Below, piece by piece: positions 1,536 through 39,774 of a stretch of 64,000 nucleotides of DNA. Source of the stretch: Bacteroidota bacterium (GTDB lineage: Bacteria > Bacteroidota > Bacteroidia > Bacteroidales > VadinHA17); contig JBAXXU010000003.1 in NCBI GenBank assembly GCA_037127735.1, positions 229 to 64,228 on the forward strand. Reading direction: 5' to 3'. The position numbers and the translations under genes are program-made. The notes under the pieces are model-generated. The model saw nothing but the letters and a program-made list of their open reading frames with translations, ran no database searches and was not told the origin of the DNA. Every line of letters begins with the position of its first letter. The first letter of the stretch is position 1.

Positions 1536-1553
1536 TGGCAAAATATTAAAAGC

Positions 1554-11705: not shown

Positions 11706-13892
11706 ATGATGAAGACAAAAACCACTTTTATATTTTTTACGTGCTTACTTGGTTTATTGATGAATGCAGTGGCTCAGGAAAATCTAACACCTGCAGATCC
11801 CGAATATTATGCAATGGAGCGTCAGCAGATGCGGTTCGATGATTACCAGGTAATGTTGATCAATTACAGGGGATTTGTATGCCCGCGTCAGTACAGCATG
11901 ACATGTTTTACGAGTGTTCAGTTTCTGCCTGTTAGCGCTCCATCTTATACTTTTAATCTTAATTTTTTTGATAATAATACCGGAAAAACAGTAAGAGATG
12001 ATGTTCCGCAGATATGGGATGAGTGGATAGACGATGGTAAGGGAGACGATCCGCTTGCAGCTAATTTCAGGCCCAACTCTCCTTACATGATGGTTACTCA
12101 GGATGAAATGTGGCAACCAAATGCATATTTCAGATCAGGAACCTTTCATAAGGAGATTGACGGGAGATGGCTCAGCTTTTCCATCAATAGCATAACAAGT
12201 GTCTCATATAGTAATGATGAGGTGTTTCTAAAAATTATTATGAAAAACAGGAGTGAGAAACCGTTGAAACTTACTCTTATACCGCAACAGATAGCAAGCC
12301 AGATGTTCTTTGATGGGATGCCTGGTTCTGACAGCGCCAGACAGATTGATGTATTTACAATGGGAAGTGAACAGATGCATGCCAGGGTCTCATCTGATAT
12401 TGAAGCCATAAGCGACAAGGGTTTTGAACTTACATTGACTCCATCTGAATACACAACAGTCTATTTTTCGGTTCAGTTCTATCAGGCAGGCAAGAAAGCC
12501 CCCGCTATTGTTCAGAATGATATTAAGTTGCGAATGAATCAGGCTTATCAGGTAACAAGGGATAAGCTGAAATGGGCTTATGAAAATGTTCCTAAACTCG
12601 AAAGCTCCAATAAAAAGTTGCAGGAATACTATTACCGCTGCCTGTTGTCAGTTCTGATGAGCAGGTATGAAAATCCGAATTACATTACAAATCCTTTCTG
12701 GGCAGTCGGTTACTGGCCATTTACCATAAGTTGGGATAATTCTTATTCTTCCGATATTCTGGCAATGCTCGATCCCAAGAGTCTGAAGCAGGCTATTTTG
12801 ACTGATTTCCGCGAAGTGAAAATGAAAAAAACATACGTGAGCTGGAAGGGCGCTTTCTGGGATAATATTTATATACAGGAGCCATTTGCCCTGCAGATAA
12901 TGATAGAAGCATATCTCCGGCATACAGGCGACTATAGCCTGTTTAACGAACAGGCAGGTGACGCTACTGTATGGGAATGGATGAAGCGATGGGTTACTGA
13001 GCTAAAAACCAACTACACTAATAAGGATGGACTAATGGACGTAGGTTATGACACTCAGAAAATAATAGAGATACGCACCGATGGTTATAATCATGTCGTT
13101 CCTATTGTTAATGTTTTAACAGTTCATCTGCTGTACCGTATGTCGGAATGGTCAGGACTATTAAAGGACAAAGATGGTCCGGCCTATTTCAGAGATGCCG
13201 AAAAGCTTAAGGATCTTATGAATAGTAAACTCTGGAATGATGAAGAAGGCTGGTTCGACAACCTCTATCCTGACGGATCAAAAGAGGCAATATGGACAAA
13301 CCATCTGTTCGATGCATTGGGAACTGATTATCTGACCGGCACACAGGTTAATAAATTAGTTAGTCATCTTAGAGAAGGTGTTTTTCTTGGTAAATTCGGG
13401 GTCTATTCAATTGCCAGGAAAGACAGTATTCACTGGGATTTAATTGATTCCGACTGGGGCGGTGGCGGTCAATATGCCGGTATGCCGGGGCGTATATCAC
13501 GGAATCTCTATAAACAGGGTTTTGCAGAGATGGGGTGGGATATATTGAAGCGGCACATTCGCTATATAGACTATTTCCCTTATCTGCCTCAGAACCCCAA
13601 GACCGATTCTCCTGTGCAGGACAGGTCATCAATGCCTGTGGAGATTTCAGCAGGTGCAGGGATGGAGGCAATCATTTTCGGAACATTCGGAATAAATATC
13701 GGAAAGGATAAACTAACTATTACACCCAATACCCATGAAGAATTAGACGTGACTACTCTCCGCGATTTTAAATACAAAGGGAGATCTTACAATATTCAGA
13801 TTAATAAAGGAAATTTCTCGGTTTTTCAGGATGGAAAATTGATTGCGATCAGGCCATTTGGAGAATCGGTGGTTGTTAATGATGTGTTTTGA
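11706..13892 (+). CDS. Secreted protein of unknown function (possible six-hairpin GH63/MGH1-like glycosidase)
   Basis: Signal peptide (FTCLLGLLMNAVAQ). The segment FWAVGYWPFTISWDNSYSSDILAMLDP resembles the WDS-type motif of (alpha/alpha)6 glycosidases. This is a weak call. Confidence 0.55.
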   Translation: MMKTKTTFIFFTCLLGLLMNAVAQENLTPADPEYYAMERQQMRFDDYQVMLINYRGFVCPRQYSMTCFTSVQFLPVSAPSYTFNLNFFDNNTGKTVRDDVPQIWDEWIDDGKGDDPLAANFRPNSPYMMVTQDEMWQPNAYFRSGTFHKEIDGRWLSFSINSITSVSYSNDEVFLKIIMKNRSEKPLKLTLIPQQIASQMFFDGMPGSDSARQIDVFTMGSEQMHARVSSDIEAISDKGFELTLTPSEYTTVYFSVQFYQAGKKAPAIVQNDIKLRMNQAYQVTRDKLKWAYENVPKLESSNKKLQEYYYRCLLSVLMSRYENPNYITNPFWAVGYWPFTISWDNSYSSDILAMLDPKSLKQAILTDFREVKMKKTYVSWKGAFWDNIYIQEPFALQIMIEAYLRHTGDYSLFNEQAGDATVWEWMKRWVTELKTNYTNKDGLMDVGYDTQKIIEIRTDGYNHVVPIVNVLTVHLLYRMSEWSGLLKDKDGPAYFRDAEKLKDLMNSKLWNDEEGWFDNLYPDGSKEAIWTNHLFDALGTDYLTGTQVNKLVSHLREGVFLGKFGVYSIARKDSIHWDLIDSDWGGGGQYAGMPGRISRNLYKQGFAEMGWDILKRHIRYIDYFPYLPQNPKTDSPVQDRSSMPVEISAGAGMEAIIFGTFGINIGKDKLTITPNTHEELDVTTLRDFKYKGRSYNIQINKGNFSVFQDGKLIAIRPFGESVVVNDVF

Positions 13893-13972: not shown

Positions 13973-15019
13973 ATGAACTTTGAACCAGATTATCGGCAAA
14001 TCGAGAAAGTCTTATTCAACGAACTCCCTCAAAGATTACCATTGTACGAACATCACATAGACATACCTTTTATTGAAAAGGTGCTGGGCAGGAAAATAAC
14101 TCTCCAGGGAAACAAGCCCGGTGATTATGAAGATTATTACCGGCAAATAAGTGCGTTTTGGAAAGATATGACCTATGATGCCTTTGATTACGAAGCCGCG
14201 ATCTGTGATATTCTACCGGGTCACGGTGCCATTATGGGTGGAATGGCAGGGCCAATACAAACCCGGGAGGATTTTAACAACTATCCATGGGCAGATATTC
14301 CAAAAATATTTTGGAAGACTTATACGCCACATTTCGAGGCAATTCGAAACGTCTTGCCTTCAGGAATGAGGGCTTATGGCGGTTGCGGTTATGGTATCTT
14401 TGAAGCAAGCCAGGATTTGACCGGTTATGAGCATTTGTGCATCATGCAGTGTATGGATCCTGATCTTTTTGCTGATCTTTTTAAAAAGATAGGAGACCTG
14501 TGGGAAACATTGTGGCAGGGCGTGATTGAAAAATATTCGGATATGTTTGTTTTTTTCAGGATGGGCGATGACCTTGGGTATAAAACTTCCACTTTACTTG
14601 ATCCTGATGTTATACGTCAGCATATTCTTCCGCAGTACAAGAGGGTTATTGATTTAGTACACCGTTCAGGAAAAAAGTTTTTACTCCATTCCTGTGGCAA
14701 TATTTTTCCACTCATGGATGATATCATAAATTTAGGTATTGATGCCAAACATTCTAATGAAGACCAGATAGCCCCGTTTGCAGACTGGGTCGAAAAATAT
14801 TCCGGTAGAATTGGCCTTTTCGGAGGCTTTGATTTGAATCTGCTTGTATTGGAAAAACCTGAAATAGTATATAAAACTGTTTTAGAGCATGGCACACTTT
14901 TCCGTGGCACAGCTAAAGGATACGGACTAGGTTCAGGCAATTCAATACCCGGCTATATCCCGGTTGAAGGGTTTCAGGCTATGATTGATGCAGCAAAAGA
15001 AATCAGACGTAGAGAATAA
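13973..15019 (+). CDS. Uroporphyrinogen decarboxylase (URO-D)-fold family protein, MtaA/CmuA-like
   Basis: The length, the N-terminus (ERLPLYEHHID-type) and LLHSCGN (H239-S-C241 at 14687-14695) are typical of URO-D-fold methyltransferase-like proteins. The distal Cys position reads GSGNSIP, so no Cys is present there. Confidence 0.65.
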   Translation: MNFEPDYRQIEKVLFNELPQRLPLYEHHIDIPFIEKVLGRKITLQGNKPGDYEDYYRQISAFWKDMTYDAFDYEAAICDILPGHGAIMGGMAGPIQTREDFNNYPWADIPKIFWKTYTPHFEAIRNVLPSGMRAYGGCGYGIFEASQDLTGYEHLCIMQCMDPDLFADLFKKIGDLWETLWQGVIEKYSDMFVFFRMGDDLGYKTSTLLDPDVIRQHILPQYKRVIDLVHRSGKKFLLHSCGNIFPLMDDIINLGIDAKHSNEDQIAPFADWVEKYSGRIGLFGGFDLNLLVLEKPEIVYKTVLEHGTLFRGTAKGYGLGSGNSIPGYIPVEGFQAMIDAAKEIRRRE

Positions 15020-20846: not shown

Positions 20847-22100
20847 ATGAAAATTCTTTCAAACGAACTAAAACAGTACCGCACCTATTTCAGTAAAGAA
20901 CTTCATGAAGATATTCTTCCCTATTGGATGAAATACGGAGTCGAAAAGAACGGACATGGTTTCTATGGAGCTGTTGATCTGAACGGAACCCCTGTCCTGT
21001 CTGCAAATAAGACAAGTGTTTTGAATACCAGGATTTTATGGACATTCTCTGCAGCTGCAGCGCTGGATGGGAACAAGAAGTATTCTGCTATGGCTGATAA
21101 AGCTTATAAAGTTGTCACTGAAGATTTTGAAGATAAGGAGTATGGTGGGTATTATATGGAATTGTCGTCTGACAATAAGGTGGCAAACGATATAAAACTT
21201 ACATACGCACAGGCTTTTGTTATCTATTCTCTTTGTAAATATTTTGAGTTCCGTCCGCTTGATTCCGTGATGCAGAAAATCCGGGAGTTTTTTACGCTCC
21301 TCGAAGAAAAAACCAAAGATCCTGAAAACATTGGCTACAGGGAATCGTTTACCCGCGACTGGAAGATTTATGGCGAAAACCGTATGGCCGATAATAATGA
21401 GCCGAAATCGATGAATACACATCTTCATATACTTGAAGCATGGGCTGCTTTGTATAAAGTGTGGAAAGATCCGAAAGTTGAGCTGAGACTTACTGAATTG
21501 ATGAACCTGTTCCTCGATAAAATCATCAGGAAAAACGGACATTTTGGTATCTTTTTCGATGAGGCATTAAATGAAGCAGATTCTTCGAAAGGGATCTGTT
21601 CATTCGGACACGATATTGAGGGCTCATGGTTATTATGGGAAGCTGCTGAAATACTGGGCAATAAGGAGATTCTGGAAAAGATGCGCCCAATGGCAGTAAA
21701 AATGGTCGATAATATTGAACGTGTTGCCGTGGATAAAGATGGCGGACTTTTTCTTGAATCAACACGGTTCGGAAGTCATGTTAAAACCAATAAGCACTGG
21801 TGGCAGCAGGCCGAAACGCTTGTAGGATTTATGAATGCCTTTGAAATGACAGGTGATATAAAATACTGGAATACGGTAAAGCTGTCATGGAATTTTATTA
21901 ACACTTGCCTGATTGACCATGAAAGAGGTGAATGGTTCACCAAACTTAACCGTCTTGGAATTCCTTATCTTGTTGAGCCGGTAGATGATCCTTCACCCTA
22001 CTACAGGAATGACTGGAAAATTGATCCATGGAAATGTCCATACCATAATGGCAGGGCCATGATGGAACAAATGAAGCGAATTGATGCTTTGCTTCATTAG
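20847..22100 (+). CDS. N-acylglucosamine 2-epimerase (AGE) family epimerase/isomerase (cellobiose/mannobiose 2-epimerase or mannose isomerase-like)
   Basis: ILPYWMKYGVEKNGHGFYGAVD, NTRILWTFSAAA and later (alpha/alpha)6 AGE-type segments. Starts 10 nt after GH38-2. Confidence 0.85.
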   Translation: MKILSNELKQYRTYFSKELHEDILPYWMKYGVEKNGHGFYGAVDLNGTPVLSANKTSVLNTRILWTFSAAAALDGNKKYSAMADKAYKVVTEDFEDKEYGGYYMELSSDNKVANDIKLTYAQAFVIYSLCKYFEFRPLDSVMQKIREFFTLLEEKTKDPENIGYRESFTRDWKIYGENRMADNNEPKSMNTHLHILEAWAALYKVWKDPKVELRLTELMNLFLDKIIRKNGHFGIFFDEALNEADSSKGICSFGHDIEGSWLLWEAAEILGNKEILEKMRPMAVKMVDNIERVAVDKDGGLFLESTRFGSHVKTNKHWWQQAETLVGFMNAFEMTGDIKYWNTVKLSWNFINTCLIDHERGEWFTKLNRLGIPYLVEPVDDPSPYYRNDWKIDPWKCPYHNGRAMMEQMKRIDALLH

Positions 22101-22184: not shown

Positions 22185-23999
22185 CTAACCATTAGCCAGC
22201 TCCAGCATCCTTTTCACTGCTGGGTTTGGATTGATTATTTCATCAGCCGAACTAATAGTTATTGTTGGGATTGCACCATGTTCGAGATGTATCTGCATCC
22301 GCAGCTCCTCGTCTTTGCTTTCCCCACTCAGGCTGGAATAGCCAAAGGTGCGGCAAAGTTTTCCAAAAAGTATTTCGTTGAGGTTGCACCCTCCGGCCCT
22401 TTCCAATCCTTCAGTTGAGGTTTGCCAACTTCTGAACAGATGTACCTGTGCGAATGAAAGCCCTTGAGCTGTTATTTCGTTCAATCCTTCACCACCTACT
22501 GCCAGGCCGTTTCCCAGTTCTGATACATGCCTGATAAGCTTGCTCATTCCTTCAGTAGGAGCCATTGTTTCAACTATGCAGTTATGGATGTTCCAGATAC
22601 AGAGTGTTACATCAATAAATGCGGTATTTAGTGAAAGGTCCTTCGATGCGTTAAGTATTCTTTCCCCCAGGATTGAACGCCACATGCTTAAGCCGGGATG
22701 AATCTTAACCATTACTTTCTTATCCCGATTGTTAAGGCGATTCATATTAGACTCAGGAACGCCAATCACTTTGCTGTTATACCAGCTCCATCCCTGCAAC
22801 TGTTTTGTCTCAACCGATCTGTAAGGAAAATCCCTTACTTGTGCATACACCGGATTGGAAGGATCCATATCGATAGAGTTGAAATGGGGCATTACATGAA
22901 ATCCCATATTATTGCCTTTTTTTATGAAAGTTCTGGCATTATCACTGGCAAAATAATCCGGGTAGTTCTCATCATAACTGTCTGTTCTCCAGTCAGGAAA
23001 GTGCAGAAGAATTTTCTTTGGTAACACTCTTTTAGATAAAGCATCGAGGATCTCTGGTTTTCCCGGGCACCACGATACTGCCAGTTTGATGTCATTTATC
23101 CAGGGTTTGCGTCTCCGTTCCTCTGCCTCAAGATTATAAGCCTGCCAGTACCACTGACGGTATTTTTCTGCAGGTATGCGCCACTCTCCCCGGTAGGTAT
23201 TAATTCTCCAGCAGATTCCTCCGGCGCTAAGATTGTCATCTAATGGTCCATAAGCCTCACTGTCGAAGCCAATGATAAAAGGATCAGATTCAATTCCTGT
23301 TTGTAAAGCCTTGTACCGGTAGTGAGTGTCTTGTGAATGAACCCAGAATCCTCCCTCTTTTGACTGAAAAATGGCCAGACCAGCTTCCCAGTCTGAAGGC
23401 CATTTCCATCTGTTATTTTTAATTAAAGGATCGTCAAGTTTAAGCTTAATACCCTGGAATAGAGGTGCAACTAAATCAAGAGTTGGTTTTACCCCCGATA
23501 TGTTCCACCGGCATGCCATTACTCCGGGTCGTGAGGAGTAGGCAGAAGGTTCTATTAAAAGATCCCCCGTCACTTCATCAACTGAAATAGACAGAACACC
23601 ATCACCTTCCCAGCTGTGAAATAACACTTCAGCCTTTTGATCAGAAAGCTGACGCGATTCGGTGCTTCCAAACTTCTCCTCGTTAATATTGATCTTTTCG
23701 TTATTGAGATATATCAATTGTAAAGCCCTGAAATTACTCGTGTCAGGTTTTTCAATAAATTCTTCACTGTTCGGTTTATTCTTCAGGGAGGTTATGACTC
23801 CCTTCTCTATTACAGCGGAGAGTGTCGCGGTTTCAACAAATATCTTATTGTCTTTTACTAGAACAGTTGCCTTATTCTCATCCGAAATAGACTGAGCTTT
23901 TACTTGCTGAGCTACAATTTGAGAACTGGTTAATTGTGGAGCCACAATTGTGGCGGCAGCTGTATAACCTGCATTTTTAACAAAAGCTCTTCTTTTCAT
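22185..23999 (-). CDS. TAT-exported protein of unknown function (possible glycosidase-like, DUF6259-like from memory)
   Basis: Twin-arginine signal MKRRAFVKNAGYTAAATIVA. A 604-aa uninterrupted ORF, convergent with the AGE gene. Confidence 0.6.
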   Translation of the reverse strand: MKRRAFVKNAGYTAAATIVAPQLTSSQIVAQQVKAQSISDENKATVLVKDNKIFVETATLSAVIEKGVITSLKNKPNSEEFIEKPDTSNFRALQLIYLNNEKININEEKFGSTESRQLSDQKAEVLFHSWEGDGVLSISVDEVTGDLLIEPSAYSSRPGVMACRWNISGVKPTLDLVAPLFQGIKLKLDDPLIKNNRWKWPSDWEAGLAIFQSKEGGFWVHSQDTHYRYKALQTGIESDPFIIGFDSEAYGPLDDNLSAGGICWRINTYRGEWRIPAEKYRQWYWQAYNLEAEERRRKPWINDIKLAVSWCPGKPEILDALSKRVLPKKILLHFPDWRTDSYDENYPDYFASDNARTFIKKGNNMGFHVMPHFNSIDMDPSNPVYAQVRDFPYRSVETKQLQGWSWYNSKVIGVPESNMNRLNNRDKKVMVKIHPGLSMWRSILGERILNASKDLSLNTAFIDVTLCIWNIHNCIVETMAPTEGMSKLIRHVSELGNGLAVGGEGLNEITAQGLSFAQVHLFRSWQTSTEGLERAGGCNLNEILFGKLCRTFGYSSLSGESKDEELRMQIHLEHGAIPTITISSADEIINPNPAVKRMLELANG

Positions 24000-24139: not shown

Positions 24140-25492
24140 ATGAATAGAGTTCTCTTAAGATGCACAATTGCCTCAGCATTAGGCGGATTGCTGTTTGGCT
24201 ACGACACGGTAATCATTAACGGGGCCATGCTCGACCTGGTCAGGCACTTTCAGCTGACTCCTGCAATACAGGGATGGACAGTCAGTTCCGCTCTGGTAGG
24301 ATGTATATTAGGTACAATTCTGATAGGAAAACCCGGTGATATTTATGGTGCACAACGGTTGCTTCAGTTGCTTGCAGTTCTCTTTTTTGTTTCTTCAGTA
24401 GGATGTGGGTTAGCTTCAAGCATAGGTGTGTTCATAACCTTCCGGTTTATTGGTGGCCTTGCAATTGGTGGAGCCTCAGTGCTTTGTCCGGTTTATATTT
24501 CCGAGATATCTCCGCCAAAACACAGGGGGGTCTTGGCCTCTACCTTTCAGCTGGCTATTGTTGTTGGTATTTTATTATCCTTAATCTCGAACTATTTATT
24601 GCTGAATATTGGCGACCAGAACTGGCGTTGGATGCTTTTCAGTGGCGCTCTTCCTGCAGTGGCGTTTTTTTTGATGCTTCTGGTTATAAGAAAGAGCCCT
24701 CGTTGGTTGGTGAAAAAGGGGAGGATTGAAGAAGCAAAGAAAAACATTGAAGAGTTATCATCCCATGAAATAGATACAGACCAAACCATTCTCGAAATAC
24801 AGGAATCTATCAATACGGAAAATGCAGCTAAAAGAATAAATGTATTCAAAAGACCCTATCGGAAGATTATTTTTATTGGGATATTTGTCGGGATATTCAG
24901 TCAGCTTACAGGTATAGGTGTCGTTTTCTATTATTCAGCACAGATTTTCAGTATTGCAGGTTTCTCAAGCGATTCGTCAATGCTTCAGAGCGTAATACTC
25001 GGTGTTACAAATCTTATTTTCACATTGATCGCAATGGCAGTTATTGATAAGGTTGGAAGAAAAAAATTGTTGCTTGTCGGACAATTGGGAATGGTGACTG
25101 TTCTTGGTTTATTTGGATATGGACTGCTCACGGGAAATATCACAGGGTATTGGTTAGTAGCGCTGCTGGTAGCCTATATTGCATTTTTTGCGTCATCAAT
25201 GGGAGTAGTGATATGGGTGCTGTTGTCTGAAATGTTTCCGAATATTATCAGGGCAAGAGGGGCATCTATAGGCTCTTCTGCGAATTGGGTAGTTAATGCT
25301 TCTCTTAATTTTTTCTTTCCTGTTGTAATTGGATTTTTTGGAACAACCCAGGCTACACAACAAATAAGTATGAGTTATGCCTTTATCTTTTTTTCGGTCT
25401 TTACTTTCATCGGGTTTATTTATGTGAATAAATATTTGATCGAAACAAAAGGTAAAACACTCGAACAGATTGAAAAGGAAGTACTTCATTAA
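24140..25492 (+). CDS. MFS sugar porter (sugar:H+ symporter family)
   Basis: GGLLFGYDTVIINGA, GR(K/R) loops (VIDKVGRKKLLL) and PETKG-like ETKGKTLEQIE near the C-terminus. Twelve hydrophobic segments by eye. Confidence 0.9.
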   Translation: MNRVLLRCTIASALGGLLFGYDTVIINGAMLDLVRHFQLTPAIQGWTVSSALVGCILGTILIGKPGDIYGAQRLLQLLAVLFFVSSVGCGLASSIGVFITFRFIGGLAIGGASVLCPVYISEISPPKHRGVLASTFQLAIVVGILLSLISNYLLLNIGDQNWRWMLFSGALPAVAFFLMLLVIRKSPRWLVKKGRIEEAKKNIEELSSHEIDTDQTILEIQESINTENAAKRINVFKRPYRKIIFIGIFVGIFSQLTGIGVVFYYSAQIFSIAGFSSDSSMLQSVILGVTNLIFTLIAMAVIDKVGRKKLLLVGQLGMVTVLGLFGYGLLTGNITGYWLVALLVAYIAFFASSMGVVIWVLLSEMFPNIIRARGASIGSSANWVVNASLNFFFPVVIGFFGTTQATQQISMSYAFIFFSVFTFIGFIYVNKYLIETKGKTLEQIEKEVLH

Positions 25493-25498
25493 TAAGAA

Positions 25499-26599
25499 AT
25501 GACCCCGCGCGAAAGAATATTATCTATTCTGAAAGGAGAGCAACCCGATCAGGTTCCATGGTGCGGCGATCTTGATTATTGGGCAAATTCACTGATTAAA
25601 CGGGGATTAAAACCAGCTGATTTTATTTTATCTGATGATTATATTAAGTGGCATCGCGAACTGGGAGTAGGCTTTTATCTGCAAGGGTACTTCCCTTACA
25701 AACAGATTTTTAGTAATTGCAATTTGCATGAATGGAACGAGGGACCAAGACGCTATAAAGAAATAGTTACATCAATTGGTTCAGTACGCGAATGTTGGGA
25801 ATATATTCCAACCTCTTTTTCTAATGCGCCTGTAGAACATTTCATGAAATCTGAAGCCGACATTCCGGTCATGAAGTACATCTACGAAAATACCAGGTTT
25901 GAGCCCGATTATGACCAGGCAAATCTCAGAAAGAAACAGGTAGGTGACCAGGGTGTAGTTCTGTGCTACCTTCCCAAAAGCCCGTTTATGCACCTTATGG
26001 CCCTTGAAGCGGGTATTATGGCAGTCACCATAGCGGCATTGACCACCCCCGAGGAGTTTAAGGATTTGCTTGACACGATGAAGAGAGCATTTGATAAGGC
26101 TGCCCGGATCGCGGTTGACAGTCCCGCGGAGGTATTAATGATCCCGGAAAATCTCTCTTCCGAAATGGTAGGACCTGATCTCTTTAAATTGTATATGCAC
26201 GACTATCAGAAAGAATGGATAACGAAGATCAGAGAAGCTGGAAAATACTCATTTATTCATATTGACGGTACCCTGGCAGGATTACTGAAACAGGAAGCGG
26301 AGATAGGTTTTACCGTACTTGAAGCTCTTACTCCGCATCCTGTCGGAGATATGAAATGGGAAAATCTTGAACTATTTGTCGGAGATTCAAAAAGCATACT
26401 ATGGGGCGGTATCCCTGGTTCTTATTTTACTGATTGTGTTGATGATGAGGAATTTGACCGGCATGTTAAATATCTGCTTTCAATTATGGTCACAGAACCG
26501 CGTTATGTTCTCGGAGTAGCCGACCAGGTTCCTCCCGATGGTCTCGAAAGCCGGGTAAAGCGTGTCTCGGAACTTGTTAATGAATATGGAAAATACTAA
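25499..26599 (+). CDS. URO-D-fold family protein (divergent; HxC replaced by H-I-D)
   Basis: Starts 6 nt after the MFS gene. Similar length and overall layout to the other two URO-D-like ORFs. The motif position reads IHIDG (26258-26266). Confidence 0.55.
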   Translation: MTPRERILSILKGEQPDQVPWCGDLDYWANSLIKRGLKPADFILSDDYIKWHRELGVGFYLQGYFPYKQIFSNCNLHEWNEGPRRYKEIVTSIGSVRECWEYIPTSFSNAPVEHFMKSEADIPVMKYIYENTRFEPDYDQANLRKKQVGDQGVVLCYLPKSPFMHLMALEAGIMAVTIAALTTPEEFKDLLDTMKRAFDKAARIAVDSPAEVLMIPENLSSEMVGPDLFKLYMHDYQKEWITKIREAGKYSFIHIDGTLAGLLKQEAEIGFTVLEALTPHPVGDMKWENLELFVGDSKSILWGGIPGSYFTDCVDDEEFDRHVKYLLSIMVTEPRYVLGVADQVPPDGLESRVKRVSELVNEYGKY

Positions 26600-26670
26600 G
26601 GCTAAACATAAACTCATCACCTCCCGACGGTAAAAATTGTATATTTTAAACTCTAAACTCTACACATATT

Positions 26671-27693
26671 ATGAACGGATACGAGAGAATTAATGCCGCA
26701 CTGAAAGACGAGAAACCTGATAAAGTTCCGGTTATGCTCCATAATTTTATGATGGCAGCCAGAGAACATGGCGCGACAATGGAGCAATACCGCGATAGCC
26801 CTAAGGTGATTGCAGAAACGTTTATAGCAGCGATAGAAAAATATCAATATGACGGTATCCTTGTAGATATCGACACGGTTACACTTGCCGGTGCAGTTGG
26901 TGTTCATGTGGATTTCCCTGTAAATGATGCTGCCCGTTCGCATGACGGGAATATAGATAATTTAGACGATGTTATTAATCTGAAACCGGCTAAGGTTGAG
27001 GATTATAAATATATTCAGATCTGGCTCGAAGCAGTAAGACTGCTGAAGGATCATTTCAAGGATGAGATATATATCCGTGGCAACTGTGACCAGTCTCCAT
27101 TTTCACTGGCAAGTATGATGCGCGGTGCACAAAACTGGATGCTCGATTTAATGATGGGCACGGATGAACAGATCAACTTATTGTTAGAATACTGTACCGA
27201 TGCTACTTCCCGGTTTGTGAAGCTGATGGCACAAACCGGTTGCGATATGGTTTCAAATGGAGACAGCCCCGCCGGGCCCGAAATGATATCTGCTGAAATG
27301 TATTTGAAATATGCTATGCCTTATGAAAAGAAAATTGTGGAAGTAGCTCATAATGAAGGTGTGGCATATACTTTGCATATCTGCGGGAATACTGATGTTA
27401 TCCTCGAACACATGTTATTGACCGGAGCCGATGCTTTTGAATTAGATTACAAAACAGACATAACCAAAATATTAAACACTATTAGTAGTACTACAACATT
27501 CATTGGAAACATTGACCCCAGTGGCGTTTTAGCATTGGGTACAGTTGATGTTGTGCAGAAAAAAACTTTTGAATTATTGTCTGTCTATAAAAATTCAAAT
27601 CGTTTTATTCTGAATGCGGGCTGTGCTATTCCGCCCAACACACCATCGGAGAACTTGAAAATGATGATAGAAACAGCCAGAAATTTTCGATAG
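26671..27693 (+). CDS. URO-D-fold family protein with a complete MT2-type H-x-C...C motif (MtaA/MtbA/CmuA-like methyltransferase candidate)
   Basis: MNGYERINAALKDEKPDKVPV N-terminus typical of the family. LHICGN (H236-I-C238, 27376-27384) and NAGCAIP (C318, 27622-27624). Confidence 0.7.
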   Translation: MNGYERINAALKDEKPDKVPVMLHNFMMAAREHGATMEQYRDSPKVIAETFIAAIEKYQYDGILVDIDTVTLAGAVGVHVDFPVNDAARSHDGNIDNLDDVINLKPAKVEDYKYIQIWLEAVRLLKDHFKDEIYIRGNCDQSPFSLASMMRGAQNWMLDLMMGTDEQINLLLEYCTDATSRFVKLMAQTGCDMVSNGDSPAGPEMISAEMYLKYAMPYEKKIVEVAHNEGVAYTLHICGNTDVILEHMLLTGADAFELDYKTDITKILNTISSTTTFIGNIDPSGVLALGTVDVVQKKTFELLSVYKNSNRFILNAGCAIPPNTPSENLKMMIETARNFR

Positions 27694-27949
27694 AATAAAA
27701 TATTAAATTTTCGTATGAGTTAAAAAAAATTATCTTAAAGAAATATTTAGCGATGACCTTTTTCAAAGCGCTGATTTACCAACGGCAACCCGTGGAGGTC
27801 AAATAATATATCATATTGATGTAAAATTCAAATTATTTGTAAACAAGAGCCTCAGCCTCCGTTTTATTAGAGACTACCATAAACTATTCTTCAGTTTTTT
27901 TGTAATTATGCTTCTTAAACATTATTTTTGTCAGGCATAATTATTGTAT

Positions 27950-29320
27950 ATGAAATTTATTAACCGGGAATCTGAAATAAAACGTCTAAAGAATGCCATC
28001 GAAAGTCCCATTGCCAAATTGGTTGTAATTTATGGGCGGAGAAGATGCGGAAAATCTACCTTAATCAGGAACATATTTAAGAAGGCTGATATTTACTTTA
28101 TGGCGCAACAGGCAGATGAATCTGTTCAACGGATTCAACTTGCAAAAGTTATTGGTGAAAAAATAGTTGGCTTCGATAAACTCATTTATCCCGATTGGGA
28201 ATCGTTATTTCTTAATCTGAACAACACCTTAAAGGAAAATATTTCTCTGTGTCTGGATGAATTTCCATATCTTGTTAAAAGTTCGTCTATTTTTCCCAGT
28301 CTGATTCAAAAAATTACTGATGACCCCAATGGCAGAAAATACCATCTGATTTTATGCGGTTCATCGCAGCAGATGATGCATGGATTGGTTCTTGACAGCA
28401 CATCGCCATTGTATGGCAGGGCTGATGAGATTTTAAATATTCAACCCATAAAACCTGCATGGATAATTGAAGCTCTTGATTGCACACCCTTACAGGCCGT
28501 TCAGGAATATTCTGTGTGGGGAGGGGTTCCAAGATACTGGGAATTAAGAAAGGAAAAGGAATCATTTGAAGCAGCCTTGAAGAGTATTGTTTTTGACCGG
28601 CTTGGTGTTTTACATGAGGAACCTGCCAGACTATTCCTTGACGATATGCGCGAATCGGTTCAGGCGTTTTCTATTCTTTCAATAGTTGGTATGGGAAGTA
28701 ACAGGATATCTGAAATTGCGGCAAGACTTAATAAACCTGTAACTCAGCTTTCACGACCAATTGATAATCTGATAAACCTTGGGTACCTGAAACGTGAGAT
28801 TCCTTATGGCGGGTCTTTAAAAACCGGAAAAAAAAGCATATACAGGATTTCCGATCCTTTTATGAATTTCTATTTTTCATTTGTTTCGCCAAACCTTTCC
28901 AGGCTGCAGTCGGGCTTGATAGATCAGGTGTATGAATCGTCTTCCATCGGGCTGATCCATTTTTTTGCCAAAGAATGGGAAAATCTCTGCCGGATATGTA
29001 TTCCTTTCTTACCTGTTGAAGGAATAAACTTTGATTTGCCATCTCGATGGTGGGGAAATAATGTCAGGGGCGAACAAATGGAATTGGACCTGGTATGTGA
29101 ATCGACTGATAAAAAATGGGTACTGATCGGAGAATGTAAATGGAGCCGTGTTTCTGATCCTACATCGATATTCGTTGAGTTGGAGAAAAAAGCTGAATTA
29201 TTGCCATTTATTAAGGACAAAAAAATCATAACTGTACTATTTGTAAAAGAGTTAAGTTTAACAGATAAAAAGAATCCCCGGATTTTTACACCTGAAGAAG
29301 TTCTTTCAAGGTTAAAATGA
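27950..29320 (+). CDS. ATP-binding protein, archaeal-ATPase-like P-loop + wHTH + DUF234-type PD-(D/E)xK-like C-terminal domain
   Basis: Walker A GRRRCGKST; Walker B LCLDEFPYL. The C-terminal ELDLVCES...WVLIGECKW has a D...E-x-K nuclease-like pattern. The ORF track starts at TTG 27944; the ATG at 27950 (MKFINRE) is the likelier start. Confidence 0.7.
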   Translation: MKFINRESEIKRLKNAIESPIAKLVVIYGRRRCGKSTLIRNIFKKADIYFMAQQADESVQRIQLAKVIGEKIVGFDKLIYPDWESLFLNLNNTLKENISLCLDEFPYLVKSSSIFPSLIQKITDDPNGRKYHLILCGSSQQMMHGLVLDSTSPLYGRADEILNIQPIKPAWIIEALDCTPLQAVQEYSVWGGVPRYWELRKEKESFEAALKSIVFDRLGVLHEEPARLFLDDMRESVQAFSILSIVGMGSNRISEIAARLNKPVTQLSRPIDNLINLGYLKREIPYGGSLKTGKKSIYRISDPFMNFYFSFVSPNLSRLQSGLIDQVYESSSIGLIHFFAKEWENLCRICIPFLPVEGINFDLPSRWWGNNVRGEQMELDLVCESTDKKWVLIGECKWSRVSDPTSIFVELEKKAELLPFIKDKKIITVLFVKELSLTDKKNPRIFTPEEVLSRLK

Positions 29321-29437: not shown

Positions 29438-30193
29438 ATGAAAAACCAACGAATGAAAATATTATATTCCTTTCTTTTCTTTTGGATAACTGTAATTGGT
29501 TATTGCAAAAGCTCCTCAAACCCTTTGTACTCATTTCCTAAGTCTCCATGGCCCGAATCGTTCGGAAACCACAGGGCGGTGCTTGAAATTTCAATGGAAT
29601 CAGGAGTGGTAATTCTTGACCTGGTCTTGCGCAGACATGATCCGCGACCTGACAACAAACAGTTTATTATTGTTGAAGCTGCAACCGGCGATACTGTTCC
29701 CAACATCTATAGATATTCTGTGACTAACGAACGTTGCAGGTTTGGTTTGATGGGCGACATGCTTCAGGGAGGAGGAAACCGCTGGATGGGAATGGTTTAT
29801 GGAATGACAGTTCGTCATCCATGGACAACAGAAGGTGTATTGTGCGATCCTCGTCCTGTCTGGAAGATATGGGATGAATTTGGTATTGAATCTTCTGTCA
29901 TGAAAGGTTATTGGGAAAAAGATTGTCCTGTAACTACTAATATCAAAGATATTCTTGCAACAGTCTATCAAAAAGCGAGTGAATCATTGATTTCTGTTGC
30001 CAGCTGGGCTGATAGTCCGGTTAAGTTTTCATTTCAGATAGACTGGAAAACTCTGGGATTAGACCCGGCGAAAGCGATACTTTTTGCTCCAGCCATTAAA
30101 GATTTTCAGGAAGAGTCCATCTTCAAACCTGGTGATTCTATCTCGATTGAGCCAAAGAAAGGATGGCTGATTTATCTTCGGGGAAAAGAGTGA
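29438..30193 (+). CDS. Short lipoprotein-like ORF, possibly an internally deleted remnant of a larger glycoside-hydrolase-associated (DUF6067-like) protein
   Basis: Signal (FFWITVIGYC). The N-terminal FGNHRAVLEI... and C-terminal IDWKTLGLDPAKAILFAP... segments resemble, from memory, the two ends of ~600-aa proteins, but only 251 aa are present. Confidence 0.35.
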   Translation: MKNQRMKILYSFLFFWITVIGYCKSSSNPLYSFPKSPWPESFGNHRAVLEISMESGVVILDLVLRRHDPRPDNKQFIIVEAATGDTVPNIYRYSVTNERCRFGLMGDMLQGGGNRWMGMVYGMTVRHPWTTEGVLCDPRPVWKIWDEFGIESSVMKGYWEKDCPVTTNIKDILATVYQKASESLISVASWADSPVKFSFQIDWKTLGLDPAKAILFAPAIKDFQEESIFKPGDSISIEPKKGWLIYLRGKE

Positions 30194-30235
30194 CAATTAA
30201 CAAGTAAAAATTAATTTGTTAAAAATAGAAAGATT

Positions 30236-31458
30236 ATGACCATAAAACCTGTTTACTCCTTGTCCTTCACCCTTTTTGCCTGGGCGATGTTTTCTTGTGG
30301 AAGATCTCCTCATATTCAGCCTCCGTTGAGCCTTCACCCTCAAAATCCACATTATTTTCTCTTCCGGGAAAAGCCTGCAATACTTATCGGATCAACAGAA
30401 CATTATGGTGCAGTTATGAACCTTGATTTCGATTACATAAAATACCTTAATGAAATTGCTGCATCAGGATTAAATGTCACACGCACCTTTTCGGGAGTCT
30501 ATGTTGAACCTGCCGGCACCTTCGGAAATTATCTCCGTTGTTCATTGGAAATAATGTCAATAATGTCGGTAACATTAAGGATCACAAGGAAATACTGTCA
30601 CTCAGACATCCTGAAATTATTGAAATTCAGGAAAAAATGGTCAGGAAAATAATCCTTGAACTTAAAGACTTTGATAACCTGTACTATGAAGTTTGTAATG
30701 AGCCATATTTTGGAGATACTTTGGCGCTCAGGGAATGGGAGAATCAAATGACCGCAATCGTGGTAGATGCCGAAAAGGATTTCTCTCAAAAACACCTGAT
30801 ATCCAACAATGTTGCTAACGGTTTTCTTAAGGTTCCAGAACCCCGCGAAGGCGTTTCAATTTATAATTTTCATCATGCAAAACCTCCTGTTACCGTGGCT
30901 ATGAATTACAACCTGAACAAGGTGGTTGGCGATAATGAAACAGGCTTCAACGGAATTGAAGATGCGACATACCGTACCGAAGCCTGGGATTTTATAATGG
31001 CTGGAGGTGCATTGTTCAATCATCTTGATTATTCTTTTACTACGGATAATGAAGACGGCAGTTTTAAAATAGAAACAGGGCAGCCCGGTGGGGGAGGCAA
31101 GACTCTCCGGAAACAGTTTAAAATCCTGGCAGACTTCATGCAATCGCTCAATTATATCAGTATGAGGCCTGTAAACACTGAAATAGTCAGGTTAAAAGGA
31201 GAGAAAAAGATGCCAATTTACGGACTTTATGAGGAGGGTAAAGTATTAGCAATGCACCTCTGCGGAAAAGATACTGCAAGTGCCGGGACACTTATCGATA
31301 TAAATCTGCCGACCGGGACATATACCCTCACCTGGATAGATACGAAGAGTGCCGCAGAAACGGCTTCGTCCTTAAATAAACATTCTGGCGGATGGACAAC
31401 TATCGCTTCGCCTCCATATATCGGAGATGTGGCATTAAGGGTGGTAAAATTGAACTGA
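30236..31458 (+). pseudogene. Frameshifted clan GH-A (GH5-like) glycoside hydrolase
   Basis: Two overlapping ORFs in different frames: 30236..30652 (frame 2) and 30538..31458 (frame 1; this frame is open from 30508). The first carries a lipoprotein signal and a TIM-barrel start. The second carries YYEVCNEPY (acid/base) and GDNETGF (nucleophile-like). The frame switch must lie at about 30508-30545. Confidence 0.65.
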
Positions 31459-36015: not shown

Positions 36016-37272
36016 ATGAAACGAAAGTACTATCTGGTTATCCTTATTTTTCTGATCTTTTTCGCTATTTCTTTTTTAACTAATATCCTTGGCTCAATTA
36101 ATCCAAATGTGAGCGACAGCTTTTCCCTGAATGGGACGATGACCGGATTGCTTCCATTTTCCTTTTTCATCGCGTATGCTTTAATGTCAATTCCATCAGG
36201 AATGTTTGTACAGAAATACAATGAAAAGAAGAGTTTAATCCTTGCCTGGATTCTTGCATTTTCAGGTGCGCTGTTATTTTCCATTATTCCTGTATTTCCT
36301 GTATTCCTATGTTCACTTTTTCTTATTGGTTGCGGAATGGCCCTTCTACAGGTTGCATTGTTTCCGTTGCTCAGAGTAACAGGAGGTGAGGAGCATTTTG
36401 CATTTAATAATGTTATTGTTCAGTTGGTTTTTGGGGTTGCCTCATTCCTGAGCCCATTCGTATATTCATATCTTGTATCAAATCTTGGTGATCAGCACAC
36501 AACAAAAGGAATCTTTATAGGTATTATGTCATTTCTTACCCCACATCAATTGCCTTGGGTATCAATATACTGGATATTTACATTCATTAGCCTGTTAATG
36601 ATAGGGATCATTCTTTTCGTGCGCTTTCCAAAGGTAGTGCGAAAGGATGATGAAATTGTCGGAGCCTGGGAAACTCATTTGGAGTTGTTCAGACAAAAAA
36701 CGGTACTGCTTTTTTTCCTGGGGATATTTTCCTATGTTGGTGTTGAGCAGGGAATTGCAAACTGGATTTCAGAGTTCCTGCGGACATACCATGGATTTAA
36801 GCCAGAGACAGAAGGCGCTGCAACTGTTGGTTTATTCTGGGGTATGATGACGGTCGGTTGTTTTCTCGGACTGGTCCTATTAAAGATTATAGACAGTAAA
36901 ATTGTATTACGCATTTTTACTACAGCTGCTTTAATTGCATTGACTTTCACCCTTTTTGGTAAGGCTGAAATTGCTTTGATAGGATTCCCTGCACTGGGTT
37001 TTTGTCTGTCGGTGATGTACGCGATTATCTTTTCACTTGCACTTAACAGCGTTTCAAAATTCCATGGTTCTTTTGCAGGAATATTATGTACTGCAATTGC
37101 AGGAGGTGCAATATTCTCTCTCCTGATTGGAAAATTGAAAGATCTTATCGGATTGCAGGAAGGAATGATGATTTTGTATTTACCTTTAACCTATATTCTA
37201 AGTTTGAGCTTCTGGGCCAAACCAATAGTGAGGAATGCAATTATAAAAAGGAAAATTACTTCTAAAAATTAA
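36016..37272 (+). CDS. MFS sugar transporter, FucP/GluP-like
   Basis: Twelve hydrophobic segments. The N-terminal region (LGSINPNVSDSFSLNGTMTGLLPFSFFIAYALMSIPSG) resembles fucose/glucose-galactose permeases. Confidence 0.8.
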   Translation: MKRKYYLVILIFLIFFAISFLTNILGSINPNVSDSFSLNGTMTGLLPFSFFIAYALMSIPSGMFVQKYNEKKSLILAWILAFSGALLFSIIPVFPVFLCSLFLIGCGMALLQVALFPLLRVTGGEEHFAFNNVIVQLVFGVASFLSPFVYSYLVSNLGDQHTTKGIFIGIMSFLTPHQLPWVSIYWIFTFISLLMIGIILFVRFPKVVRKDDEIVGAWETHLELFRQKTVLLFFLGIFSYVGVEQGIANWISEFLRTYHGFKPETEGAATVGLFWGMMTVGCFLGLVLLKIIDSKIVLRIFTTAALIALTFTLFGKAEIALIGFPALGFCLSVMYAIIFSLALNSVSKFHGSFAGILCTAIAGGAIFSLLIGKLKDLIGLQEGMMILYLPLTYILSLSFWAKPIVRNAIIKRKITSKN

Positions 37273-37282
37273 ATTAAAAACC

Positions 37283-38020: not shown

Positions 38021-38059
38021 AATTTAATGTTTGTCTGTTAATATATTAACAATAACATT

Positions 38060-39586: not shown

Positions 39587-39588
39587 AG

Positions 39589-39738
39589 AATTTCTCGCAG
39601 AGTCGCAGAGGCGCAAAGAAAAACTTGGCGACTTTGCGTCTTTGCGTGAAAAAGACGTATGAAGAACTATTGCAATTTCTCGCAGAGTTGCAGAGGTGCA
39701 AAGAATGACTTAGCGACTTTGCGTCTTTGCGTGAAAAT
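39589..39738. repeat. Two tandem copies (period 85 bp) of an imperfect-hairpin intergenic repeat
   Basis: Copy 1 (39589-39653): aatttctcgcagagtcgcagaggcgcaaagaaaaacttggcgactttgcgtctttgcgtgaaaaa. Copy 2 (39674-39738): aatttctcgcagagttgcagaggtgcaaagaatgacttagcgactttgcgtctttgcgtgaaaat. The CGCAAAG and CTTTGCG arms can pair. Confidence 0.9.
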
Positions 39739-39774
39739 ACCAGACTGGAAGAGTAGCACATTAATCAATTAAAA

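Follow-up and report, generated by a model that had tools for sequence, protein, structure and literature searches.

The 64 kb window (the whole stretch of DNA that we analysed) contains exactly three open reading frames that match a URO-D superfamily HMM, and we refer to these as U1, U2 and U3. U1 (13973..15019, forward strand) encodes a URO-D-fold protein of 348 amino acids; U2 (25499..26599, forward strand) encodes one of 366 amino acids with a beta-rich N-terminal insertion; and U3 (26671..27693, forward strand) encodes a 340-amino-acid, MtaA-like protein of the same fold, assigned by Pfam and by alignment to MtaA. All three proteins exceeded the gathering score of 23.9 bits for Pfam URO-D (PF01208), with 226.5 bits for U3 (E 6.4e-67), 62.9 bits for U1 (E 3.5e-17) and 54.9 bits for U2 (E 9.7e-15). 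Translation gave LH236-I-C238-GN and NAGC318AIP in U3, LH239-S-C241-GN and GSGN323SIP in U1, and IH254-I-D256-G and GVAD342QVP in U2, confirming the reading frames and the residues quoted in the original prediction. The description of the three as paralogues held at the level of the superfamily and no closer: pairwise identity among them is below 25%, and U2 and U3 are ~19% identical (tblastn E 0.06). Each has its own set of orthologues, 72–87% identical, in many Bacteroidota, and the source database names these genes 'uroporphyrinogen decarboxylase family protein'. In this MAG the proteins are MEI6047402.1, MEI6047408.1 and MEI6047409.1, and the contig is 81,751 bp long.

The surrounding genes are those of a mannose-glycan locus. 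An MFS sugar porter gene (24140..25492, forward strand; Pfam Sugar_tr 350 bits, TIGR00879 346 bits) ends 6 bp upstream of U2. Further upstream on the same strand lie genes for two GH38 alpha-mannosidases (15162-18047 and 18146-20836), each with GH38 N, C and C2 domains in Pfam and a signal peptide, and for an AGE-superfamily, cellobiose/mannose 2-epimerase-like enzyme (20847..22100; Pfam GlcNAc_2-epim 148 bits) that scored 300 bits with NCBIfam EpiA, below the cut-off of 800. A secreted MGH1-like (GH63-like) glycoside hydrolase, weakly matched in Pfam (26 bits, cut-off 27), is encoded just upstream of U1 (11706..13892, forward strand), and a DUF6259 protein with a TAT-like leader (44.7 bits) is encoded on the reverse strand between the epimerase and porter genes (22185..23999). 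Inspection of N-termini revealed signal peptides on the glycosidases and none on U1–U3 or the AGE epimerase. A tblastn search of the window with a related corrinoid protein and CobW gave no match better than E = 2.7, in agreement with the original statement that the window encodes no corrinoid protein. Outside the window, the flanking parts of the contig contribute nothing more than a restriction-modification system, an ABC sugar transporter and GH65, with no corrinoid protein, tetrahydrofolate (THF) methyltransferase or reactivase among their genes. Based on the tblastn search and the flank genes, we rejected the possibility that the window or its flanks conceal a gene for a corrinoid protein, CobW or a THF methyltransferase.

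Family placement of U1–U3 was based on HMM and profile scores. Taken at face value, the database names would make U1–U3 HemE uroporphyrinogen decarboxylases of haem or sirohaem synthesis; the Pfam URO-D matches agree with this, and HemE structures fit the U3 model with a TM of ~0.75. However, U3 scored 108.3 bits with the hemE equivalog TIGR01464, against a cut-off of 302.95, and U1 and U2 gave no match to that model at E ≤ 0.01. Both PROSITE UROD signatures, which we take to be PxWxMRQAGR and GF..xP[FYW]T[LV]..Y, were without a match in U1, U2, U3 or any frame of the window. No haem genes were found near U1–U3, the conserved context being glycosidases and sugar porters. On these HMM cut-offs, signatures and context we rejected a HemE function, which we regard as having next to no chance of being correct; the original claim that these are not haem-biosynthesis genes is upheld. 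U3 scored higher with the MtaA/CmuA models TIGR01463 and NF004889 (162.0 and 165.7 bits) than with hemE. The corresponding scores were 32.9 and 36.5 bits for U2, and 28.5 and 31.7 bits for U1. All of these values are below the cut-offs of 235.4 and 244; that U3 falls below the curated cut-off of every MtaA/CmuA-family model runs against the reading we favour. The best solved relative of U3 is MtaA (PDB 4AY7, E 2.4e-20). The U2 family profile ranked MtaA first (6.9e-8), CdmB second (5.4e-5) and HemE after these, and the U1 family profile had no match in the PDB at E ≤ 0.1. AlphaFold models of moderate quality (pLDDT 78 and 74) gave TM values of 0.73–0.78 for U3 and 0.57–0.60 for U2 when compared with MtaA and HemE structures. 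MtaA was the best solved relative of U3 by fold too, although URO-D structures score alike, and for this reason the fold search was uninformative in separating MtaA from HemE.

We compared the three proteins at the zinc-ligand positions of MtaA. These positions are occupied by His/Cys/Cys in U3 (His236, Cys238, Cys318), His/Cys/Asn in U1 (His239, Cys241, Asn323) and His/Asp/Asp in U2 (His254, Asp256, Asp342), and the H-x-C-x(n)-C zinc-ligand motif is present only in U3. The LHICGN and GC of U3 match the LHICGN and PGCG of Methanosarcina mazei MtaA (PDB 4AY7) residue for residue. The codons of His236-Ile-Cys238, aligned to the H-I-C of MtaA and containing the predicted proximal ligands, lie at 27376..27384 (forward strand); that of Cys318, the predicted distal ligand, which aligns to the GC of MtaA and is invariant in alignment A3, lies at 27622..27624 (forward strand). 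Profile-profile alignment of U3 with the U2 family (99.2% probability, 336 columns) paired H236/H254, C238/D256 and C318/D342, and alignment with the U1 family (96.9%) paired H236/H239, C238/C241 and C318/N323. HxCG and GC are kept in 120/120 top homologues of U3, and HSCG and GSGNS are kept in 120/120 top homologues of U1. Among 72 representatives of the U2 family that are 23–50% identical, H254, D256 and D342 are each at least 90% conserved. Only 13 columns of this family reach 90%, the triad residues among them, and mean column identity is 32%. Because H/D/D is among the few near-invariant columns of so diverged a family, the predicted metal site of U2 is retuned rather than lost, contrary to the original suggestion that the other two proteins had lost parts of the motif. 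Other URO-D subfamilies in related loci have the triads HCH, HDH and HCD, and the differences in putative ligand triad among subfamilies are systematic variation. We also rejected the idea that U1–U3 are decaying or degenerate paralogues, given their separate orthologue sets of high identity and the near-invariance of the substituted ligands in U2. A zinc-free URO-D-fold methyltransferase, CdmB, is known (PMC13222342). We propose that U2 may act as a second methyltransferase for methyl sugars, using hard ligands at its metal site, or may serve U3 as an accessory partner.

Relatives of U3 were found in 493 species genomes. The counts of related loci given here come from the best-scoring 80 of the 493 species loci, which are not a random sample. 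The usual order of the module is GH38, AGE-type epimerase, MFS sugar porter, sometimes U2, and then U3. An MFS porter gene lies within 10 kb of U3 in 50/80 loci; an AGE epimerase gene is near U3 in 44/80 and a GH38 gene in 41/80. U3 is 3' of the porter gene in most related loci, directly so in 26/70. U2 is directly upstream of U3 in 15/80 loci (15/70 by the MFS-adjacency count, additional to the loci with MFS-U3), and in many loci U3 is the sole URO-D gene and follows a sugar porter (L001, L003, L005, L036). In the loci with the closest synteny (L019, L023, L028, L030, L034), a DUF6259 gene lies between the AGE epimerase and MFS porter genes. Orthologues of U1 likewise adjoin GH38 and MFS porter genes in relatives, and a gene of the MGH1-like hydrolase type is found 3' of U1 orthologues in L096 and L097. 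An isolate, Draconibacterium aestuarii Z1-6, carries the module in locus L086. The arrangement of the module makes U3 a good candidate for what was originally suggested, a zinc-dependent methyltransferase whose substrate is an imported sugar.

A corrinoid protein is encoded within 10 kb of U3 in 7/80 of these loci, and directly downstream of U3 in 5/71 (L009, L010, L012, L064, L066), at a distance of 73–204 bp, on the same strand and with DxHxxG/SxL/GG in the corrinoid protein. We put the chance expectation for this adjacency at ~0.06, a rough estimate of our own from gene density rather than a computed statistic. L017 and L010 contain a full set, MFS-U3-AraC-corrinoid-pterin-binding MT-MTHFR(-X230), in which the pterin-binding methyltransferase (Pterin_bind) passes NCBIfam NF005719 with 273 bits (cut-off 259). 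The original guess that methylated sugars are processed is given real support by these corrinoid, THF-methyltransferase and MTHFR genes adjoining U3 in relatives. Several corrinoid-linked U3 loci also encode a MetH-activation-like protein; in L101, a corrinoid hub locus, the MetH activation domain PF02965 scored 43.3 bits in a ~230-amino-acid protein. A non-exhaustive scan of the genes in the related loci showed no RACE/Ram ATP-dependent activase, an observation that goes against our preferred reading. The association with corrinoid genes extends beyond U3: all URO-D subfamilies found in related loci adjoin a corrinoid protein gene somewhere. A U1 orthologue follows corrinoid-U449-CobW in L009, a U1 orthologue and U355 flank the corrinoid protein in L145, U367 and U413 adjoin it in L123 together with a RhaT sugar symporter, and a U3-like protein and U449 adjoin it in L140. 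Viewed from the corrinoid side, the hubs often stand alone, with no URO-D gene nearby. Around the closest hubs, L100, L101, L104 and L106, the superfamily HMM detected no URO-D gene to a distance of 8 kb, although these hubs are set among SusC/D, GH3, GH116 and sugar-kinase genes; the substrate-side enzymes that serve them must therefore be encoded at other sites.

In 73/80 related loci (91%) there is no corrinoid gene within 10 kb of U3, and hub genes are likewise absent from the window and its flanks, both of which count against the reading we favour. They would be expected if U1–U3 were metal enzymes of the URO-D/MetE fold that work without a corrinoid and catalyse another reaction on imported sugars of the mannose type (decarboxylation, isomerisation or thiol transfer, for example), with the corrinoid neighbours being unrelated. 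Such an assignment would sit comfortably in a superfamily that includes HemE, MetE and epoxyalkane:CoM transferase (PMC10418091), and all subfamilies found here score below the curated methyltransferase cut-offs. By contrast, U3 and the corrinoid gene are close neighbours on the same strand repeatedly, in separate lineages, several other URO-D subfamilies are likewise next to a corrinoid gene, the hubs that lack a substrate-side enzyme in cis imply partners encoded elsewhere, and none of the matches suggests an alternative reaction. We consider a corrinoid-independent reaction unlikely. The original prediction had reasoned that the chemistry may differ from known systems for want of a corrinoid partner; since relatives carry the corrinoid gene directly downstream of U3, it is simpler to suppose that the genome encodes the partner at another site.

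The original prediction had also labelled the U3 motif as MT2-type, and His/Cys/Cys zinc sites are typical of thiol-alkylating enzymes (MtaA, MetE). The site would fit an acceptor-side (MT2) role better, contrary to our preferred reading. U3 might then take methyl groups from the methyl-corrinoid and pass them to THF or a thiol, with U2, U1 and U355 as the sugar-specific MT1 enzymes. Consistent with this, the best matches of U3, like its motif, are those of MT2 enzymes, THF-using MT2 enzymes of the URO-D family are known (MtqA/CdmA; PMC13222342), and L009, L064 and L066 are arranged as U2-U3-corrinoid with no pterin-binding methyltransferase in the locus sequence examined. However, it is difficult to see why a sugar locus would hold only an acceptor-side enzyme, and this disfavours a swap of roles given the many loci in which U3 is the only URO-D gene, right after a sugar porter. 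Moreover, L017 and L010 already hold a THF-side enzyme, and U3 therefore fits the substrate side. In known systems it is the MT1 that usually adjoins the corrinoid gene. Given this gene arrangement, the MT2 label is doubtful and U3 is better regarded as a candidate MT1; we give the exchanged roles little chance. There is precedent for MT1 enzymes of the URO-D fold that act on methyl ethers and chloromethane, some zinc-containing and others zinc-free (PMC13222342; PMC10418091).

Judged from sequence and gene context, U3, and with it U1 and U2, are probably cytoplasmic cobamide-dependent methyltransferases, and the three probably provide an oxygen-independent means of stripping methyl groups from methylated sugars. 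In its specific form, which we favour by a modest degree, they would be PUL-encoded, metal-dependent methoxy-sugar:corrinoid methyltransferases that feed a hub encoded elsewhere. The neighbouring genes point to O-methyl-mannose as the most likely substrate. Secreted GH38 alpha-mannosidases and other glycosidases would release sugars in the periplasm, and the adjacent MFS porter would import the methylated monosaccharide. At the metal site of U3, formed by His236/Cys238/Cys318 and presumably holding Zn2+, the methoxy oxygen would be bound and polarised, much as zinc does with methanol in MtaB, allowing Co(I) of the corrinoid protein to attack the methyl group and yield CH3-Co(III) and the free sugar. 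The AGE-type epimerase could then hand demethylated mannose on to glycolysis. The methyl group would pass to THF by way of a MeTr-like pterin-binding methyltransferase and be oxidised by MTHFR, while a MetH-activation-domain-like protein would repair oxidised cobalt. In the host genome this hub (corrinoid protein, THF methyltransferase, MTHFR and reactivase) is presumed to lie outside the window. U1 (His/Cys/Asn) and U2 (His/Asp/Asp) may likewise work on the substrate side, on sugars methylated at other positions or on other sugars. We give even chances to a broader proposal, that anaerobic and facultative Bacteroidota, Ignavibacteriota and Chlorobiota share an O2-independent, cobamide-dependent O-methyl-sugar demethylation in which URO-D enzymes with interchangeable HCC, HCN, HCH, HDH and HDD triads, scattered in glycan loci beside sugar porters, would all feed one hub.

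Several characterised or proposed systems resemble this one in part. Coenzyme M is not expected in Bacteroidota. The methylcobamide:coenzyme M methyltransferases MtaA/MtbA (MT2-A; PDB 4AY7/4AY8; TIGR01463) have the URO-D TIM-barrel fold in common with U1–U3, their zinc motif H-x-C-G-N ... G-C is kept in register in U3, and U3 relatives likewise adjoin a cognate corrinoid protein. By contrast, U3 is outside the curated family (162–166 versus 235–244 bits), lies in a Bacteroidota glycan locus beside a sugar porter and likely has its role on the donor side, and U1 is without one Cys ligand and U2 without both. HemE has the same fold and Pfam family as U1–U3 but is metal-free, and its signatures, equivalog score and haem context are lacking here. 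The Odm/Vdm/Mtv and CdmBCA systems, corrinoid-dependent O-demethylases and dehalogenases of anaerobes, follow the same three-part logic of MT1, corrinoid protein and THF methyltransferase that is complete in L017 and L010; they include zinc-containing and zinc-free MT1 enzymes of the URO-D fold (PMC13222342), and the U2 profile detects CdmB. Their substrates are aromatic methyl ethers or halomethanes and their hosts Firmicutes acetogens, whereas sugars and Bacteroidota are proposed here. In addition, the parts are mostly dispersed here, with the MT1 in PULs and the hub at another site; the protein for reactivation is like the MetH activation domain and unlike a RACE ATPase, and the operon has an MTHFR fused into it. 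The type 1 mlp clusters (Kountz & Balskus, PMC10418091), for which methyl-sulfur or methyl-selenium compounds are the suggested substrates, combine several distinct MtaA-like URO-D lineages with one corrinoid protein outside methanogens, and there too the THF methyltransferase is often missing; compared by their published description, they differ in being mainly from Firmicutes, in having a Ram/RACE activase and in having no carbohydrate genes. In marine bacteria a P450 encoded within a polysaccharide utilisation locus, the 6-O-methyl-D-galactose demethylase (Reisky et al. 2018; PMC6292453), does the job proposed here, O-demethylation of a sugar to let its catabolism go on. It is unrelated to the URO-D proteins, being an O2-dependent monooxygenase that releases formaldehyde, whereas the proposed system would be O2-free and pass the methyl group to THF.

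O-methylated sugars occur in red-algal porphyran and in bacterial and plant polysaccharides, and a methyl group on a sugar blocks its ordinary catabolism. They are also found in microalgal and mollusc N-glycans (PMC7383745, PMC7690630). The oxygen-dependent P450 is the only sugar demethylase described (PMC6292453), and a 2025 paper says of sugar demethylation in anaerobes that it 'has not been elucidated yet' (PMC12316285). Our literature search on URO-D/corrinoid methyltransferases in PULs or methyl-sugar demethylation found no such system described. If the demethylase reading is correct, this step in anoxic glycan turnover would gain candidate genes in at least 493 species genomes, and the distributed pathway would supply the anaerobic counterpart that the P450 sugar demethylases have so far lacked. 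Glycan degradation by Bacteroidota of sediment, peat, wetland and wastewater would be tied to vitamin B12 dependence and folate one-carbon metabolism, thousands of 'uroporphyrinogen decarboxylase' genes would need re-annotation, and the varied triads would offer a natural series for how metal sites tune methyl-ether activation. The window also encodes a Rieske/VanA-like oxygenase (5202-6167), which had originally been brought together with the URO-D genes; this link is not conserved, the oxygenase having been found only in this genome among 90 loci.

Three proteins, U1 (13973-15019, 348 aa), U2 (25499-26599, 366 aa) and U3 (26671-27693, 340 aa), were the only matches to a URO-D superfamily HMM in the 64 kb window. 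They score above the Pfam URO-D threshold (62.9, 54.9 and 226.5 bits, respectively) and are identical to MEI6047402.1, MEI6047408.1 and MEI6047409.1 ("MAG: Bacteroidota bacterium", NCBI). ORFs, translations, Pfam and motif alignments bore out the motifs of the original prediction: LLH239-S-C241-GN and GSGN323SIP in U1, FIH254-I-D256-G and GVAD342QVP in U2, and LH236-I-C238-GN and NAGC318AIP in U3. Both U3 motifs line up, position by position, with those that hold the zinc ligands in Methanosarcina mazei MtaA (PDB 4AY7); the equivalent positions were set by profile-profile alignment in U2 (99.2% probability, 336 columns) and U1 (96.9% probability). AlphaFold models (pLDDT 77.9 and 73.8) confirm the URO-D fold at the level of predicted structure and do not discriminate within it. 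We rejected HemE identity, in agreement with the prediction that these are not haem-biosynthesis genes: the hemE equivalog model scored U3 at 108 bits (cut-off 303) and did not match U1 or U2, the PROSITE UROD signatures were absent from all three proteins, and the best NCBIfam matches were MtaA/CmuA-type methyltransferase models, all under cut-off. The U2 family profile ranked MtaA and CdmB before HemE.

U1 and U2 had been read as having lost parts of the motif, which we did not find. Among the best 120 of 3669 (U3), 1501 (U2) and 4302 (U1) matches, with minimum identities of 79%, 77% and 72%, the respective motifs were kept in 120/120 for each protein, so the Cys/His positions of U3 are conserved in its orthologues. 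The three proteins share <25% pairwise identity, yet each has a large orthologue set of its own, and we therefore rejected the idea that they are decaying copies. Scanning a single representative of each 50%-identity cluster yielded 1460 U2 relatives, and an alignment of 72 full-length representatives (23-50% identity, mean column identity 32%) had only 13 columns conserved at ≥90%, among them H254, D256 and D342; hence the U2 site persists, with a His/Asp/Asp triad conserved at the three equivalent positions. Among further URO-D subfamilies of related loci, the triads are HCC (U367), HCH (U413), HDH (U355), HCD (U390) and FCC (U449). Judged from these sequences, the variation is systematic, with Asn323 of U1 the one doubtful ligand.

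The window, which also contains SusC/SusD genes, has the gene order secreted MGH1-like glycosidase, U1, two secreted GH38 alpha-mannosidases, cytoplasmic AGE-type 2-epimerase, DUF6259 protein, MFS sugar porter, U2 and U3, with 6 bp between porter and U2. Signal peptides are present on the glycosidases and absent from U1-U3 and the epimerase. Searching one genome per species, we counted 493 genomes with a U3 relative; most belong to the Bacteroidales (Prolixibacteraceae, Mariniphaga, Draconibacterium, Rikenellaceae, Paludibacter, Lentimicrobiaceae) and some to the Ignavibacteriota and Chlorobiota. Within 10 kb of U3 in the 80 best-scoring of these loci, which are not a random sample and whose ORFs were called by a simple in-house procedure, we observed the MFS porter in 50/80, the AGE enzyme in 44/80, GH38 in 41/80 and U2 in 15/80. 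Of 70 loci whose sequence extends far enough upstream, 41 have the porter (26) or U2 (15) immediately upstream of U3. U1 orthologues are flanked by GH38 and MFS porter genes, with fucosidase, BNR, lyxose/mannose isomerase and sugar-kinase genes around them. We conclude that the conserved unit is a module for mannoside catabolism, with URO-D proteins alongside an inner-membrane sugar importer. In two related loci, a small 23S_rRNA_IVP-family gene (120 aa) lies between porter and U2 (L007 9430-9792, L008 9382-9744).

As predicted, the window contains no corrinoid protein gene, and neither does the contig beyond it. In relatives, a corrinoid gene lies within 10 kb of U3 in 7/80 species loci, and 73-204 bp 3' of U3 on the same strand in 5/71; our rough estimate of the chance expectation is ~0.06. 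The locus L009 reads GH38-GH38-AGE-MFS-U2-U3, B12-binding protein, URO-D/thioredoxin fusion, CobW and a U1 orthologue (68% identical). L064 and L066 read AGE-MFS-U2-U3-corrinoid protein, then a ~230-aa protein with a MetH activation domain (X230), and L017 and L010, of which L010 has the U3 orthologue nearest to ours in the genome collection (87% identity), read (MFS-)U3-AraC-corrinoid protein-pterin-binding methyltransferase-MTHFR(-X230). The corrinoid proteins have canonical DxHxxG, SxL and GG motifs, and the pterin-binding methyltransferase passes NCBIfam NF005719, methyltetrahydrofolate:corrinoid methyltransferase (273 bits, cut-off 259). That 91% of loci have no nearby corrinoid gene would suit corrinoid-independent chemistry for U1-U3, which we consider unlikely. 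When metagenomes were searched from the corrinoid side, the nearest relatives lay in a hub operon, [AraC]-corrinoid-THF methyltransferase-MTHFR-X230; such operons often (L100, L101, L104, L106) had no URO-D gene within 8 kb by superfamily HMM and were surrounded by SusC/D, GH3, GH116 and sugar-kinase genes. The two kinds of orphan, hubs and URO-D genes, complement each other, a pattern expected of dispersed substrate-specific methyltransferases served by a shared hub.

Elsewhere the corrinoid gene is paired with U1 and U355 (L145), a U3-like protein and U449 (L140), U367 and U413 plus a RhaT sugar symporter (L123), or an MtaB homologue (L114, L033). L123 (7995-12687) reads corrinoid protein, URO-D (HCC), MetH-activation-like protein, RhaT L-rhamnose/H+ symporter and URO-D (HCH), a deoxy-sugar transporter variant, which hints that methylated rhamnose or fucose may be demethylated. 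The full-length MtaB homologue (methanol:corrinoid methyltransferase; L114 8716-10173, L033 855-2228; Pfam 548, NCBIfam 424 bits) lies in Bacteroidales-type operons that also carry AraC and a CobW-like GTPase, and suggests methanol use via a corrinoid pathway in these bacteria. The URO-D/thioredoxin fusion (L009 12917-14266, L140 1761-3230), directly 3' of the corrinoid gene, has a C-terminal thioredoxin-like domain (CxxC) and Phe for the proximal His (F-x-C...C); in L009 a CobW/COG0523 GTPase, a possible zinc chaperone, follows.

In the pathway we propose, periplasmic GH38 enzymes would release mannose and O-methyl-mannose, and the MFS porter would import both. Zinc in the Glu/Cys/Cys site of MtaB acts as a Lewis acid on methanol, and the His/Cys/Cys metal site of U3 would act likewise on the methoxy oxygen. 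Co(I) of the corrinoid protein would take the methyl group, the THF methyltransferase and MTHFR would pass it to one-carbon metabolism, a MetH-like protein would repair oxidised cobalt, and the AGE-type epimerase would convert the freed mannose. O-methyl-mannose is our inferred substrate because GH38 and AGE genes lie alongside and because N-glycans of algae and molluscs are known to contain methylated mannose (PMC7383745, PMC7690630). U3 was assigned to the substrate side (MT1) because it is often the sole URO-D gene of a sugar locus, lies immediately beside the corrinoid gene, and occurs in L017 and L010 beside an existing THF-side enzyme. Swapped roles, with U3 on the acceptor side (MT2), would suit the thiol-alkylating look of its His/Cys/Cys site but fit poorly with loci where U3 stands alone, and seem improbable. 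Among known URO-D-fold MT1 enzymes, the veratrol and vanillate O-demethylases contain zinc and CdmB of Moorella does not (PMC13222342), so the cysteines missing from U1 and U2 are no argument against methyl transfer.

The whole case for sugar demethylation by URO-D proteins rests entirely on comparative genomics. MtaA-like proteins, O-demethylase MT1 enzymes, MtaC-like corrinoid proteins and MeTr-like methyltransferases are parts of known kinds. Multi-Mlp clusters outside methanogens occur in Firmicutes, with RACE activases and without sugar genes (PMC10418091), whereas here the host belongs to the Bacteroidota and the genes lie amid sugar loci. The novel elements are the sugar setting, a host from the Bacteroidota, the dispersal of the genes, a reactivation module of MetH type and the ligand-triad series. 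A full-text literature search found no description of cobamide-dependent sugar demethylation, and the mechanism of anaerobic 6-O-methyl-galactose demethylation is still to be discovered, according to a 2025 paper (PMC12316285); our analysis turns the open question of anaerobic sugar demethylation into a testable gene set.

A cytoplasmic Rieske/VanA_C oxygenase (5202-6167), vanillate-O-demethylase-like and 19 bp after a secreted GH35/42-like enzyme, precedes TAT-exported GFO/IDH/MocA and GlcN6P-isomerase-like genes. Using oxygen, it could demethylate the kind of substrate proposed for the URO-D proteins; no other locus examined had a Rieske oxygenase near URO-D genes. An ATPase_2/DUF234 gene with a TTG start (27944-29320) occupies the spot where some relatives have the corrinoid gene; the syntenic L019 and L007 have other sequence there (GH36 in L007). 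An insertion or replacement specific to this lineage, directly after U3, seems likely. The GH123-like gene 3' of U3 (29438-30193) has an apparent internal deletion of ~2.2 kb relative to L019 12610-15921: window positions 29439-29742 correspond to the start and 29741-30510 to the end of the intact L019 gene, and the remaining 251-aa ORF covers only positions 826-968 of 969 in the Pfam GH123_N model. A second sugar module, of the 3-keto-glycoside pathway type (36016-41629), comprises an MFS_1 transporter, 3-keto-disaccharide hydrolase, TAT-exported GFO/IDH/MocA oxidoreductase, GlcN6P-isomerase-like protein and prokaryotic ketohexokinase. The glycan locus is bordered by a defence island (108-3352; also L090 1801-10471), in which a type IIG/MmeI-like restriction-modification enzyme, truncated where the window begins, is followed by AAA_21 ATPase and DUF4276 genes; a SNF2 helicase and a radical SAM gene lie 5' of the window.
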